A stretch of 32,000 bases of DNA, from contig NC_000962.3 of NCBI RefSeq assembly GCF_000195955.2, positions 2,880,001 to 2,912,000 on the forward strand, in the 5' to 3' direction. The stretch comes from Mycobacterium tuberculosis H37Rv (lineage in GTDB: Bacteria > Actinomycetota > Actinomycetes > Mycobacteriales > Mycobacteriaceae). The position numbers were made by a program. Each line of letters opens with the position of its first letter. The first letter of the stretch is position 1. Shown piece by piece: positions 6,001-15,000 of the stretch.

Positions 6001-9000
6001 CGGCCAACGTGATGTGCGCCGATACCGATGGCGAAGTCATCTGCGTCGACCTCCGCCGAACGTTCGTGCCGTCGAAGGGCTTTGGCCTGCTGCCGCCAAT
6101 CGTTACGCCGCCCGGGCTCCTCCGGCGGCTTTTGACCGGCACGGATAACGCGCTACCACCGCTGCAAGAGACGTTGCTGCGCGCCTTCGACCTTGCCGCC
6201 TCCACCGCAAACCTGCGCGAGCTTCCTCGCGTTGCGGCCATCATCGAGCCCGACGTGTCGAAGATCGGAGTGTTGAACTTCAAGCAGATTGATGCCGCCC
6301 TAGAGGCTGGGCGGATGGCAGCCCGTGCGGCTTTGCAAGCACAGCCGGACCTGGTGCGCTGAACCCGACCAAGTGCCGCTACGGCCCACTCAGGTGTCCG
6401 GCACCGGGCGTACGCGCTGCGCCGGGCGGTCCGGTGTGATCTCATCAGCAGCTATGAGCATCAAAGTTGCGCTGGAGCACCGCACCAGCTACACCTTTGA
6501 CCGGCTGGTGCGGGTGTATCCGCACATCGTGCGGCTACGCCCGGCGCCGCACTCCCGCACCTCCATCGAAGCCTACTCGCTGCGCATCGAGCCCGCCGAC
6601 CACTTCATCAACTGGCAGCAGGACGCGCTGGGCAACTTTCTGGCGCGGCTGGTCTTTCCGAATCCCATGCGCCAACTGCGTATTACCGTCGGGCTTATCG
6701 CCGACCTCAAGGTGATCAACCCCTTCGACTTCTTTATCGAGGACTGGGCCGAGATATGGCCCTGCGCAGGGATGGCCTACCCCAAGGCGCTCGCCGATGA
6801 CCTGAGGCCGTACTTGCGGCCGGTCGACGAAGACGGCGACGGTTCGGGCCCCGGCGAGCTCACGCAGGCCTGGGTGCGCAACTTCACGGTGCCCGATGGC
6901 ACCCGCACCATCGACTTCTTGGTCGCACTCAACCGCGCGATCAACGCCGACGTCGGCTACTGCGTGCGCATGGAGCCCGGAGTTCAGACACCGGATTTCA
7001 CGCTGCGCACCGGCGTCGGCTCGTGCCGGGACTCGGCGTGGCTGCTGGTCTCGATCCTGCGTCAGTTCGGGCTGGCCGCCCGGTTCGTGTCCGGCTACCT
7101 GGTTCAGCTGGCATCCGACATCGAAGCGCTCGACGGGCCGTCGGGGCCCGCCGCCGACTTCACCGACCTGCACGCGTGGGCCGAGGCATACATCCCGGGT
7201 GCCGGCTGGATCGGGCTGGACCCGACGTCGGGGCTGTTGGCCGGCGAGGGCCACATTCCGCTGGCGGCTACGCCCCACCCCGCCAGCGCGGCACCCATCA
7301 GCGGCGGCACCGACGTGTGCGACACCGTGCTGGAGTTCTCCAACACCGTCACCCGCGTACACGAAGACCCACGTGTCACGTTGCCCTACACCGACGAGTC
7401 CTGGAAGACCATCTGTGAGGTGGGCCAGCGCGTCGATGAGCGGCTGGCCGCCGCCGACGTCCGGCTGACCGTCGGCGGCGAACCGACGTTCGTGTCGGTG
7501 GATAACCAGGTCGCCGAAGAGTGGCGGACGGCGGCCGACGGCCCACACAAACGCGAACGGGCATCCGACCTGGCCGCCCGCTTGAAGGCGGTGTGGGCCC
7601 CGCAGGGACTCATCCACCGCGGTCAGGGCAGGTGGTATCCCGGAGAGCCGTTGCCGCGCTGGCAGATTGCGCTGTATTGGCGCACCGACGGGCGGCCGCT
7701 GTGGACCAACGACGCGCTGTTGGCCGACCCCTGGGGCGCCCCGCCCGCCGACCCCGTCGACGACGACGCGGCCTACCGGGTGCTCGCCGGGATCGCCGAC
7801 GGCTTGGGGCTGCCGATCTCGCAGGTGCGGCCCGCCTACGAAGACCCGTTGAGCCGGCTGGCTGCGGCCGTGCGAATGCCAGCCGGCGACCCGGTGGAAT
7901 CCGGTGACGACCTCGGCTGCGACACCAACCCCGACACCCCCACCGGCCGCGCCGCGCTGCTGGCGCGCCTCGATGAGGCCATCACCTCTCCGGCTGCGTA
8001 CGTGCTGCCGCTGCACCGCCGCGACGACGGGCAAGGCTGGGCCAGCGCGAACTGGCGGCTGCGCCGCGGTCGCATCGTGTTGCTCGAAGGGGATTCGCCG
8101 GCGGGCCTGCGGCTGCCGCTGGATTCGATCAGCTGGCGCCCACCCCGGGCATCGTTTGACGCCGACCCGGTAGCTGTGCGATCCACATTGCCGGCGGAGC
8201 TCCACACCGACCGGGCCGTAGTGGAGGATCCCGAGACGGCTCCGACCACCGCGTTGGTCGCCGAGGTCCGGGGTGGGCTGGTGCACATCTTCTTGCCGCC
8301 CACCGACGCGCTCGAGCACTTCATCGACCTTGTCGCCCGAGTCGAGGCCGCGGCGACGACGGCCAACTGCCCGGTGGTGATCGAGGGCTACGGCCCACCC
8401 CCGGACCCGCGGCTGACGTCCACCACAATCACCCCCGACCCCGGCGTCATCGAGGTCAACATCGCGCCCACCGCCTCTTTTGCAGAACAACGGCAACAGC
8501 TGGAAACCCTGTATCAACAAGCGCGCCTGGCCCGACTCACCACCGAAGCGTTCGACGTCGACGGCACGCACGGCGGCACCGGCGGCGGCAACCACATCAC
8601 GCTTGGCGGCGTCACACCCGCGGACTCACCGCTGCTGCGCCGGCCCGACCTGCTGGTTTCACTGCTGACCTACTGGCAGCGACACCCGTCGTTGTCCTAC
8701 TTGTTCGCCGGGCGTTTCGTCGGCACCACGTCACAGGCGCCCCGGGTTGACGAGGGCCGCGCCGAGGCGCTCTACGAACTCGAGATCGCGTTCGCCGAGA
8801 TCCTCCGGCTGTCGCCGTCGTCCGGGGGCGGCCGGCCCCAACCGTGGGTGACCGACCGCGCGCTGCGGCACCTGCTCACCGACATCACCGGCAACACCCA
8901 TCGCGCCGAATTCTGCATCGACAAGCTCTACAGCCCCGACAGCGCCCGGGGCAGGCTCGGCCTGCTGGAGCTCCGCGGGTTCGAGATGCCGCCGCACCTG

Positions 9001-12000: not shown

Positions 12001-15000
12001 CCGTGCGCCACCCCGCCGCCGAGCAAGCCATCATCGAGGCAACCCTGGTGGCGTGTGAATCGTCGGTTATCTATCGGCGCCGCACCGTAGGCAAGTTCAG
12101 TGTCGCCGCTGTGACCGAGCTGATGTTGTTCGACGCCCAGAACCCGCGCTCGCTGGTGTATCAGCTGGAACGGCTGCGCGCCGACCTGAAAGACCTGCCT
12201 GGCTCGTCGGGATCGTCTCGTCCGGAACGGATGGTGGACGAGATGAACACCCGCCTGCGCCGCTCACACCCAGAAGAGTTGGAAGAGGTCTCCGCCGACG
12301 GGCTGCGCGCCGAGTTGGCGGAACTGCTGGCCGGGATACATGCCTCGCTGCGTGACGTGGCCGACGTCCTCACCGCCACTCAGTTGGCGTTGCCCGGCGG
12401 CATGCAACCGCTGTGGGGTCCAGACCAACGGCGGGTGATGCCGGCCTAAACGGTGCGACGGCTGTGAGCCGGCTCGAAATCCGGGGCCACCTCGTCGACG
12501 ACGGTGTGGATGAACCGCATCTTCTCCAGCACAGCGGCCGGCAGCACAAAGGGGTATAGGTCGTCGTGGCCCATCGAGCGATTGACCATGTTCAGCGACC
12601 ACGACAGCGGCAGCCACTTGTCGATGATGGTATTAAAAGCGCTGGGGCCCAACGCCGGCCGGTCGAAGGTTGCCGACGCCGGTGCCAGGCCGCACCAGGC
12701 CGCGGTGTCCAGGGCGTCGCGGATATGCAGGTAATGAGCGAACGTCTCGGCCCAATCCTCACTCGCGTGCATGGTCGCATACGACGAGACAAAGCTGTCC
12801 TGCCAACCTTCCGGCGGGCCGCCACGGTAATGCCGATCCAACGCCTGGGAGTAGTCAGCGTCCGGGTCTCCGAACAACTCGTTGAACCGGGACAGATAGT
12901 CGCTTGACGAGGCGATGAGTCGATAGAAGTAGTAGTGCCCGATCTCGTGGCGGAAGTGCCCAAGCAGGGTCCGATACGGCTCGTCCATCTCGACCCGCAG
13001 CTGCTCCCGATGCACATCGTCGCCTTCGGCGAGATCCAGTGTGATGACTCCGTTCTGGTGTCCGGTGGTCACGTTCTCGTGCGCGCTGGACAATAGCCGG
13101 AAGGCCAACCCATGGTCAGGATCCTGGTCGCGGCCGACGATCGGCAGCTTCAGCTCGTGTAGCTCGGCGATCAGCCGCCGCTTGGCACCTTCGGCTCGGG
13201 CGAACTCCGCCAGCCCGGCGGTGTTGGTATCGCTGGGCCGCTCGATGGTCAGCACACAAGAACTGCAAAGTCCGCCGAGCTGATCACTGGGCACCAGCCA
13301 ATTGCATTGCGCGAGGTGGAGATTGGCGCAGAGTTGGACATCGGCGTCGTCGGCGATGACCAGCAGCGCCATCCGCCCAAGAGAAAACCCCAGCGCGCTG
13401 CCGCACGACAGGCAGGCGGAGTTCTCGAATGCCAGGCGCTGCCCGCAATTTGGACAGTGGAAGTCACGCATGCAGCGCATCACCTTCGAAGGGCACGACA
13501 TCGACAGAAACGTCGATCACACTGTTCTCGGAGTTGGTGTAGATGATGCCGCGTAGCGGCGGCACGTCTGCGTAGTCGCGGCCGCGGCCCACGACGATGT
13601 AGCGCTGGTCGACCAACTGGTCATTGGTGGGATCCAGCCCCAGCCACTCGAACCGCCCGGGCTGCTGCGGAGTCCACACCGAGGCCCAGGCATGCGTCGC
13701 GTCGATGCCGATCATCCGATCCTTTCCGGGCGGCGGGTCGGTGGCCAGGTAGCCCGACACATAACAGGCCGCCAAACCGTTGGCCCGTAGGCAGGCGATC
13801 GCCAGCCTGGCGAAATCTTGGCATACCCCTTCGCGGGCCAGCAGCACCTCGTTGACTCCTGTGGAAATCGTCGTGGAACCCGAGCGGTAGGTGAAGTCGG
13901 TGTAGATCCGCGACGCGAGATCGCGCAATACCTCGACCAGGGGGCGTTTGGGCAGGAAGCTAGGAGCCGCGTACTCACGCACCGCATCGGTGATCTCCGG
14001 CGGGTTCAAGTCCAGGGTGAACTCGGTGGCTAGCGATCCGGGCAGCCCGGCGGGCCGGGCCGCCTCCCACGGTTGCAGCGCCGGCCCGCTGGTGTAAAGC
14101 CCGGGCGGCGGCGGGGACACGTCGACGATGGAATCGCTGGTGATCGTCAAGGTGCGGTGCGGTTCGGTGACGTGGAAATAGGAGCTGATGTTGCCGTACC
14201 CGTCGCGGCTGGTGGACCGGTCGGCGGGGGCCGGGTCGATGGTCAGCCGGTGTGCGACACAACGCTGCCGCAGCGAATTCCGCGGCGTGAGAAACCCGCG
14301 GCCATAGGAGCTGGTCACCACGTCGGAGTAGCGGTATTCGGTGCGGTGTGTTACTCGATAGCGGTGAGTGCCCGACAACGGCAACGACAACGAGCTATCT
14401 GCTGACAAAAAGCTACCTCCTGGCTGATCACATCACACGCCGGCGGCTCGTCCGGCGCGATCGTCGCGCAATGTGGCGCCAAGCGCACCATAGCCGGAGC
14501 ACAATTAAAGCGTGGCTACCTGGGACGACGTCGCCCGTATCGTGGGTGGGCTGCCGCTGACCGCGGAGCAGGCACCGCACGACTGGCGTGTTGGCCGCAA
14601 GCTGCTGGCCTGGGAACGGCCGCTGCGCAAGTCCGACCGCGAAGCCCTGACCAGGGCCGGATCGGAGCCACCGTCCGGCGACATCGTCGGTGTCCGAGTG
14701 TCGGACGAGGGGGTGAAGTTCGCCTTGATTGCCGACGAGCCGGGCGTGTACTTCACCACCCCGCATTTCGACGGCTATCCAGCGGTGCTGGTCAGGCTGG
14801 CCGAGATCGAGGTTCGCGACCTCGAGGAGTTGATCACCGAGGCCTGGCTGATGCAGGCGCCGAAGCAGCTGGTGCAGGCGTTTCTCGCCAATTCAGGCTG
14901 ACATGCCCGACGGGCCCGGGCGTTCGATTACCCGTTGTAGATCGGTGACACACGCTTGGACGATATCGGCGCGCACCACTTCGTTGCTGCCACAAGCAGC

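Follow-up and report, generated by a model that had tools for sequence, protein, structure and literature searches.

The 32,000-nucleotide (nt) stretch of the Mycobacterium tuberculosis H37Rv chromosome analyzed here (NC_000962.3, positions 2,880,001 to 2,912,000; hereafter the window) contains a convergent cluster of four genes at window positions 6454-14408, with genes 1 and 2 on the forward strand and genes 3 and 4 on the reverse strand. Exact matches identify the encoded proteins as M. tuberculosis Rv2566 (the RefSeq form of 1113 amino acids, aa), Rv2567, Rv2568c and Rv2569c. By its domain content, the cluster is best described as the DUF2126-associated version of a widespread predicted amidoligase system built from a circularly permuted (CP) ATP-grasp domain, an Alpha-E domain and a transglutaminase. 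It is not a discovery: the genes are already annotated and the system was predicted in 2008-2009. A preliminary description of this DNA had placed four open reading frames (ORFs) here, all of which are present; it had the domains right and did not name the genes as the annotated Rv2566-Rv2569c. The features of the cluster are given below, with domain limits taken from Pfam and with junctions and the ribosome-binding site read from the DNA.

6454-9795, forward strand: gene 1, Rv2566, 1113 aa, transglutaminase-like thiol enzyme fused to a DUF2126 putative carboxylate-amine ligase
6469-7224, forward strand: gene 1 Bact_transglu_N (aa 6-82) and Transglut_core (aa 139-257), with C191, H240 and D256
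7312-9771, forward strand: gene 1 DUF2126 (aa 287-1106), putative glutamine-synthetase/GCS2 fold
9793-9797, forward strand: TAATG stop/start overlap of genes 1 and 2
9795-12449, forward strand: gene 2, Rv2567, 884 aa, CP ATP-grasp fused to Alpha-E
10137-11255, forward strand: gene 2 ATP-grasp (aa 115-487)
11409-12377, forward strand: gene 2 Alpha-E (aa 539-861)
12446-12449: convergent 3′-end overlap of genes 2 and 3, 4 nt
12446-13471, reverse strand: gene 3, Rv2568c, 341 aa, double Cys4 zinc ribbon and Peptidase_Mx zincin
12500-13210, reverse strand: gene 3 Peptidase_Mx (aa 88-324)
13229-13462, reverse strand: gene 3 zinc ribbon (aa 4-81)
13464-13471, reverse strand: ATGCGTGA, 8-nt overlap with the gene 4 stop within the gene 3 start
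13464-14408, reverse strand: gene 4, Rv2569c, 314 aa, with C196, H239 and D259
13629-13940, reverse strand: gene 4 Transglut_core (aa 157-260)
14121-14360, reverse strand: gene 4 Bact_transglu_N (aa 17-96)
14416-14420, reverse strand: GGAGG ribosome-binding site, 7 nt before the TTG start of gene 4 (14408)

The start of gene 1 (ATG 6454) is fixed by an invariant M1 in the homologue alignments. Longer starts at GTG 6325 and at GTG 6373, the latter used in older annotations of Rv2566 that give 1140 aa, were rejected by orthologue alignments. Orthologue alignment also fixed the gene 3 start at ATG 13471 and rejected a longer one at ATG 13501. Each of the claimed junctions, namely the TAATG, the 8-nt overlap and the overlapping convergent stops, was read in the DNA, where gene 2 ends with TAA at 12447-12449 and gene 3 with TAG on the complement of 12446-12448. 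The 1-nt overlap of genes 1 and 2 also occurs in Mycobacterium sp. 663a-19 (locus L084), and from the 8-nt overlap we predict that Rv2569c is translationally coupled to Rv2568c. A scan of window positions 6000-15000 for promoters and terminators found no terminator-like hairpin at the convergent junction and no recognizable promoter in the 91-nt gap before gene 1; the two intergenic gaps that flank the cluster are 91 and 103 nt. Because the stop-codon bases at 12446-12449 are shared and no hairpin terminator lies nearby, transcripts of the two arms would be expected either to overlap antisense at their 3′ ends or to terminate within the opposite gene. An Rfam search of the window gave no match.

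Catalytic domains of the four proteins

Pfam search recovered all of the families expected for these proteins (Bact_transglu_N, Transglut_core, DUF2126, CP_ATPgrasp, Alpha-E and Peptidase_Mx), and with scores of this size chance is not at issue. The motifs quoted in the preliminary description are likewise all found in the translations: GSCRDSAW, DLHAWAEAY and GLDPTSG in gene 1; LSDLFWMGRYGERAENMARLL in gene 2; CPNC..CLSC and HEIGH in gene 3; and GVCQDFARL, THAWASVW and GLDPTND in gene 4. NCBIfam has no family for genes 1, 2 and 4, and gave a sub-threshold match only for gene 3.

Rv2566 opens with a transglutaminase-like region (Bact_transglu_N, E 3.9e-23; Transglut_core, E 3.9e-16) and continues into DUF2126, which scores 1162.4 bits over the full profile (1-826 of 826), where the Pfam gathering score is 27 bits. 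The DUF2126 region, first put at ~700 aa, spans ~820 aa (residues 287-1106) in Pfam. Over ~1100 aa, gene 1 is 51-57% identical to its proteobacterial and bacteroidete homologues, and over 200 columns of the alignments do not vary. The Cys-His-Asp triad is kept in 17/17 distant homologues, which come from Proteobacteria, Bacteroidota and Planctomycetota. The three-domain architecture, in which a Cys hydrolase is fused to a glutamine synthetase (GS)-like ligase, is constant in every gene 1 homologue.

No PDB relative of DUF2126 was found by sequence or profile search. We built structure models of genes 1 and 3 using AlphaFold2 (AF2), which were then compared by Foldseek. The gene 1 model has a predicted local distance difference test score (pLDDT) of 69 and a predicted template modeling score (pTM) of 0.66. 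Its N-terminal part matches PDB 3ISR (E 6.5e-10), and the best matches of its C-terminal part, which are weak, are YbdK (1R8G; E 0.076, probability 0.87) and many glutamine synthetases (E 0.08-0.5, probability up to 0.9). These matches are weakly consistent with a GS/GCS2 carboxylate-amine ligase fold for DUF2126; they are not significant and are not proof. Rv2566 is the named example of a transglutaminase plus carboxylate-amine ligase family in the profile-based fold assignment of Iyer, Burroughs and Aravind (2008, PMC2588565), and gene 1 does not differ from that family, being this very protein.

Some homologues of gene 1 depart from the M. tuberculosis sequence. In the Paraburkholderia loci L039, L058 and L062 they align in two pieces, ~175-350 nt apart, at about 7700-7960 of each locus, a pattern that points to an insertion specific to this lineage, close to DUF2126 residue 300-320. 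The homologue at L069:2998-6147 has an in-frame stop, on a contig of 71% GC that is binned as 'Burkholderia sp.', and no non-actinobacterial genes come nearer to the M. tuberculosis set than the four of this locus (45-57% identity). Either an assembly error or a pseudogene could explain the stop, and the bin may be wrong.

Rv2567 matches CP_ATPgrasp_1/2 at ~1e-126 and Alpha-E at 1e-66; both domains are present at full length, CP_ATPgrasp_1 with 426 bits (profile 1-332 of 332) and Alpha-E with 226 bits. The ER motif of Alpha-E is present (GRYGERAEN), and the N-terminal, ATP-grasp half of the protein matches a structural-genomics entry, PDB 3N6X, at 4e-57.

Rv2568c combines a zinc ribbon (Zn_ribbon_DZR_6, 8.5e-18) with a Peptidase_Mx domain (1.3e-101, 339.5 bits). 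The HExxH motif, the glutamate of EDWAE, a further His and seven of the eight zinc-ribbon Cys are invariant in 21 diverse zincin homologues (~40% identical), at least 90% of which keep the eighth Cys. With HExxH and a third ligand in place, Rv2568c is a Peptidase_Mx zincin and a predicted peptidase. The AF2 model is confident (pLDDT 87.6) and its fold matches are weak, with anthrax lethal factor at the top (E 0.26) and IrrE and selecase among the others; they agree with the profile-based assignment of DUF2248 as a lethal-factor-like zincin (Lenart et al. 2013, PMC3650047). Rv2568c resembles the lethal factor and MtfA-type zincins in carrying HExxH and a downstream Glu on a zincin fold, whereas there is no significant structure or sequence match to them (E 0.26) and the N-terminal double zinc ribbon is found only in the Rv2568c family. 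Between its two Cys4 clusters, Rv2568c lacks ~11 residues (consensus ...GDEGEHAGAV..., alignment columns 53-63) that seven other Mycobacterium species carry.

Rv2569c has the same two N-terminal families as gene 1 (Bact_transglu_N, 7.8e-26; Transglut_core, 1.3e-14), and its Cys-His-Asp triad is invariant in 14/14 distant homologues. Its PDB matches are 3ISR (1.5e-7), a putative cysteine protease of Cytophaga hutchinsonii, and 6G49 (2.3e-6), which is TgpA; both share the Bact_transglu_N domain and a transglutaminase core with Cys-His-Asp. 3ISR is a structural-genomics entry without an assigned function, and the TgpA entry is a membrane protein's periplasmic domain; the M. tuberculosis protein, by contrast, is apparently cytoplasmic. 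Signal peptides, twin-arginine translocation (Tat) motifs and transmembrane (TM) segments are absent from all four proteins, which on this ground are apparently cytoplasmic.

The preliminary description had made conservation of the catalytic Cys-His-Asp and HExxH residues across orthologues a point to check, and these residues are invariant in distant homologues. Together, five catalytic domains are apparently intact: two of ligase type (the ATP-grasp of Rv2567 and the predicted GS/GCS2-like domain of Rv2566), two with Cys-His-Asp (Rv2566 and Rv2569c) and one HExxH zincin (Rv2568c).

Gene neighborhoods across phyla

We scanned one genome per species for the zincin family, seeding the scan with a diverse alignment of the Rv2568c family, which yielded 80 loci from at least five phyla; the window domains were placed in these loci by tblastn. 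For reverse sampling, five genomic contexts were seeded on homologues of gene 1. The order gene 1, fused gene 2, gene 4 (g1>g2>g4) was found in 5/5 of the gene 1-seeded contexts, with the genes co-directional and often overlapping, and 11 zincin-seeded loci from different phyla hold the complete gene set. The fused ATP-grasp/Alpha-E gene occurs in 13 distant loci at 35-45% identity, followed directly by the small transglutaminase wherever the contig continues. A more distant, split pair of ATP-grasp and Alpha-E genes (29-33% identity) sometimes adjoins the zincin or gene 1 instead. On this comparative evidence the conserved unit is a three-gene core of genes 1, 2 and 4, kept in the same order from Actinobacteria to Proteobacteria.

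The same loci point to the zincin gene as a recurrent but optional accessory that is not obligatory. System genes lie beside it in 21/80 zincin-seeded loci, or in 10/48 when the count is restricted to loci flanked by at least 9 kb on each side, and it is present in one of the five gene 1-seeded contexts. The distance from the zincin to a system gene is 30-400 nt in 20/21 linked loci, across five phyla. The other 59 loci, ten of them from Pseudomonas, have the zincin without system genes (58 with no match at all and one with a distant transglutaminase match only). The Gordonia zincin, at 61% identity the closest non-mycobacterial relative in the sample, stands alone. Clustering the neighbors of the 58 match-free loci revealed no common partner beyond synteny within Pseudomonas. 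A single clade of system-linked zincins was rejected, as linked and unlinked members are interspersed in a neighbor-joining tree of the family. Were the zincin placed at random, ~0.4% of genomes would have it within 10 kb of a single-copy gene; it adjoins system genes ~50 times more often than that, so the linkage is real. The earlier proposal of a four-gene unit thus stands for genes 1, 2 and 4, which are co-conserved, and does not hold for gene 3 as an obligatory member.

The mostly solitary zincin (59/80 loci) and the convergent transcription of the two arms could be taken to mean that the four genes are neighbors without a common function. We find this scarcely credible, and it is already contradicted by the neighborhood data: g1>g2>g4 recurs in independent contexts and in loci from different phyla, the zincin adjoins system genes far above random placement, and genes overlap at their starts and stops inside each arm.

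In the M. tuberculosis window the transglutaminase gene is adjacent to its partners, but lies on the opposite strand behind gene 3 and is not co-directional. Three loci (L025, L069 and L079) have the order g1>g2>g4>g3; flipping the transglutaminase-zincin (g4-g3) pair in that order yields the convergent M. tuberculosis arrangement, which has the look of an inversion. The convergent four-gene layout is repeated in Mycobacterium sp. 663a-19 with partly different flanks.

The nearest known relative of the cluster is the operon of CP ATP-grasp, Alpha-E and transglutaminase genes, with or without the proteasome-like subunit Anbu (Valas & Bourne 2008; Iyer et al. 2009). The two share the same three families, in the order ATP-grasp, Alpha-E, Bact_transglu_N transglutaminase; amide ligation is the predicted role of both, and both are uncharacterized and have a link to nitrogen starvation. 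Unlike that operon, the M. tuberculosis cluster fuses ATP-grasp and Alpha-E in Rv2567, is led by the large transglutaminase-DUF2126 protein, adds a zinc-ribbon zincin, has its transglutaminase-zincin pair inverted to give a convergent cluster, and lacks Anbu. No Anbu gene was found among the four genes, their window neighbors or loci L081-L086, and the zincin may fill the place that Anbu holds in other operons.

Several loci carry further arrangements of these families. At L083:4529-6995 and L085:4600-6981, a second, split ATP-grasp and Alpha-E pair sits beside g1>g2>g4, giving three ligase genes per locus. In Hymenobacter glacieicola (L087:3011-8092) the zincin is divergent from a split ATP-grasp/Alpha-E/transglutaminase triad that has no DUF2126 protein, and because of this adjacency the zincin appears to partner both versions of the system. 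A contig labeled as a metagenome-assembled genome of a Methanomethylophilaceae archaeon (L018:2917-6525) has bacterial-type split ATP-grasp, Alpha-E and zincin genes in a row, from either contamination or horizontal transfer.

The genes on either side of the cluster agree with the H37Rv gene map. Both upstream genes encode a cyclic-nucleotide-binding domain, fused in one to an ATP-binding cassette (ABC) transporter ATPase (3342-4334) and in the other to a patatin phospholipase (4611-6362). Downstream are a YjbR-like gene (14512-14901, forward strand, 129 aa), a FUSC_2 membrane protein gene and aspS. A 112-aa ORF without a Pfam match (14428-14766, reverse strand) runs antisense to the YjbR-like gene, with its end 20 nt upstream of where gene 4 starts. 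In DNA this rich in GC, the ORF is probably spurious.

Rv2569c and the report of serine-protease activity

The preliminary description held that the cluster has no established substrate. Our reading of the literature turned up neither a biochemical substrate nor a product, which bears this out, and two reports had been missed. The first is a 2026 preprint in which Rv2567 expressed in E. coli made no GABA (gamma-aminobutyric acid)-trehalose. The second, from 2024 (PMC11081392), presents Rv2569c as an exported serine protease of the cell wall that cleaves host E-cadherin, which would make it a virulence factor functionally apart from its neighbors. In that study 4-(2-aminoethyl)benzenesulfonyl fluoride (AEBSF) and phenylmethylsulfonyl fluoride (PMSF) inhibit the activity while E-64 and N-ethylmaleimide (NEM) do not, an antibody places the protein in the cell-wall fraction, and a deletion mutant is attenuated and has infection phenotypes, with complementation.

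The sequence argues against both the serine class and the location. Rv2569c has none of the export or membrane signals described above, and its only domains are Bact_transglu_N and Transglut_core, with no serine-peptidase match in Pfam or NCBIfam. Homologues in free-living Proteobacteria, Bacteroidota and Planctomycetota, where there is no E-cadherin as a target, all keep the triad. The Rv2569c gene is coupled to Rv2568c and in other phyla comes after the ATP-grasp gene. The serine class rests on inhibitors used in long incubations, and since neither 'catalytic' nor 'site-directed' occurs in the text of the paper, no active-site mutant is described there; the enzymology needs a catalytic-dead control. 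The mutant phenotype may be real. As an account of what Rv2569c does, the exported serine protease strikes us as quite improbable.

Other reports concern Rv2567 and Rv2566. In the lungs of chronically infected guinea pigs, Rv2567 was one of the most abundant M. tuberculosis proteins; by spectral count it ranked 7th at 90 days, having risen from 2.7 at day 30 to 30.2 (PMC2978697). Its mRNA was seen in sputum bacteria and not in broth, a transposon mutant is listed among the mutants of a macrophage-apoptosis screen, and a host locus associated with the fitness of an Rv2566 mutant has been mapped in Collaborative Cross mice. The name 'Rv2568c' also appears in a hypoxia review amid a list of RD11 antigens, which looks like a misprint for another gene and was set aside.

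Predicted chemistry and candidate roles

If the domains act as their families predict, the ATP-grasp and GS-like ligases would convert a carboxylate to an acyl-phosphate and couple it to an amine, with Alpha-E as the partner that binds substrate for the ATP-grasp domain or regulates it. The product would be an amino-acid, peptide or gamma-glutamyl-type amide, and the thiol domains and the zincin would then hydrolyze, deamidate or transfer the amide bonds. That three peptidases oppose two ligases, as first described, was an assumption, as transglutaminase-fold Cys-His-Asp domains may hydrolyze, deamidate or transfer acyl groups. An anti-phage defense role was dropped, since PADLOC matched none of the four proteins to a defense model.

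Work on related systems offers some guidance. As quoted in PMC5666114, PMC6376114 and PMC3597751, Iyer et al. (2009) predicted that the ATP-grasp/Alpha-E/transglutaminase(/Anbu) operon serves peptide synthesis or tagging; the attribution of these predictions to the Aravind group is sound, with Rv2566 itself in the 2008 paper and the 2009 triad prediction as relayed by those three sources. The ATP-grasp protein of the Yersinia Anbu operon frees phosphate from ATP, and no peptidase activity was seen for Anbu (PMC6376114). Nitrogen starvation induces the Anbu operon in Pseudomonas (PMC5666114, PMC6376114), and in Burkholderia cenocepacia the genes I35_5080-83 (DUF404/407, DUF403, transglutaminase and large transglutaminase protein) are among those most strongly dependent on NtrC/sigma54 (PMC5491218). 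In marine metagenomes the system domains co-vary with urea-metabolism genes (PMC3597751).

We tentatively favor an amidoligase system that acts on a ubiquitous small substrate derived from peptides or amino acids, in nitrogen salvage or persistence physiology, over one dedicated to a protein tag. We lean this way because gene 1 is conserved like core metabolic enzymes, there is no tag gene, homologues belong to nitrogen-starvation regulons and the system is self-contained. Several points weigh against this preference. The choice of a small molecule over a protein rests on indirect arguments, and no enzymatic product is known for any member of the system. Unless their target bonds differ, ligases and hydrolases together would run a futile cycle. 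The evidence of nitrogen regulation comes entirely from Proteobacteria, and a scan for sigma54 -24/-12 promoters upstream of gene 1 homologues found them in 3/21 loci (0.4 expected, P ~0.008), which is suggestive and too sparse to carry weight. The gene 1 model is only moderately confident, with GS-like matches that are weak, and the report of a cell-wall Rv2569c acting on host proteins (PMC11081392) also runs counter to it.

The hypothesis of Iyer et al. (2009), as relayed by PMC6376114 and PMC5666114, was protein tagging akin to pupylation or ubiquitination: the ligases would add an amino acid or short peptide to target side chains, and the transglutaminase-like and zincin enzymes would process or remove the tag. 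The pairing of ligases with hydrolases fits this writer and eraser logic, and a GS-like fold is common to the Pup ligase PafA (PMC2588565). By its putative fold and acyl-phosphate chemistry, DUF2126 may indeed be akin to PafA/Dop and the YbdK/GCS2 gamma-glutamyl ligases, whereas it has no detectable sequence similarity to them and is more than twice as long, and the cluster has neither a Pup-like substrate gene nor a linkage to the proteasome. No gene for a small tag protein lies beside the ligases; because the genes overlap there is no room for one inside the cluster, and outside it are only the two short flanking gaps. Iyer et al. (2008, PMC2588565) made the same point, that no Pup-like ORF accompanies the Rv2566-type family. 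No protein adduct has been reported, and the conservation of gene 1 across phyla fits a universal small substrate better, though a universally conserved target protein is also possible. We consider tagging unlikely here.

In nitrogen scavenging, the thiol domains would deamidate or cleave glutamine-containing peptides or proteins, freeing ammonia or amines that the ATP-dependent ligases recapture. In one variant, Rv2566 would work like an amidotransferase, with its hydrolase domain feeding its synthetase domain, or, by analogy, like PuuA and PuuD in one chain. The fusion of a Cys hydrolase to a GS-like ligase in every gene 1 homologue is in keeping with this. So are the induction of homologous clusters by NtrC/sigma54 and nitrogen starvation (PMC5491218, PMC5666114, PMC6376114) and the correlation with urea metabolism (PMC3597751), and a related idea has already been raised for the Anbu operon (PMC6376114). 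Against this, we found no literature report of regulation of these genes by GlnR or nitrogen limitation in mycobacteria, a channel linking the two active sites is beyond what the uncertain gene 1 model can show, and the need for a second ligase (ATP-grasp/Alpha-E) and a second transglutaminase is left unexplained. We hold the scavenging role, too, to be doubtful. Tagging and an amidotransferase-like ammonia relay nonetheless are live rivals of the small-substrate model that we favor.

A bolder proposal, which we rate as distinctly unlikely, is that Rv2566-Rv2569c and its homologues from Pseudomonas to Bacteroidota form a universally conserved ATP-dependent pathway for writing and erasing amides that is switched on in nitrogen starvation or chronic infection. 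It would be either a second covalent protein-modification system beside pupylation, or an amidotransferase-like enzyme in which a transglutaminase-fold hydrolase feeds a GS-like synthetase and recycles peptide amide nitrogen.

The interpretation offered in the preliminary description is essentially the published prediction, corrected here in that the zincin is optional, 'peptidase' was assumed and some literature had been missed. The biochemical function of ATP-grasp/Alpha-E/transglutaminase systems, which are widespread and are induced by nitrogen starvation in Proteobacteria, has been a question since 2008-2009. Our analysis restates that known question and adds to it a three-gene core with an optional zincin, an apparent inversion of the g4-g3 pair and a serine-protease label in conflict with the sequence. 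For a pathogen of such importance, the identity of the substrate would define either a new part of bacterial nitrogen or peptide metabolism or a previously unseen kind of protein modification.

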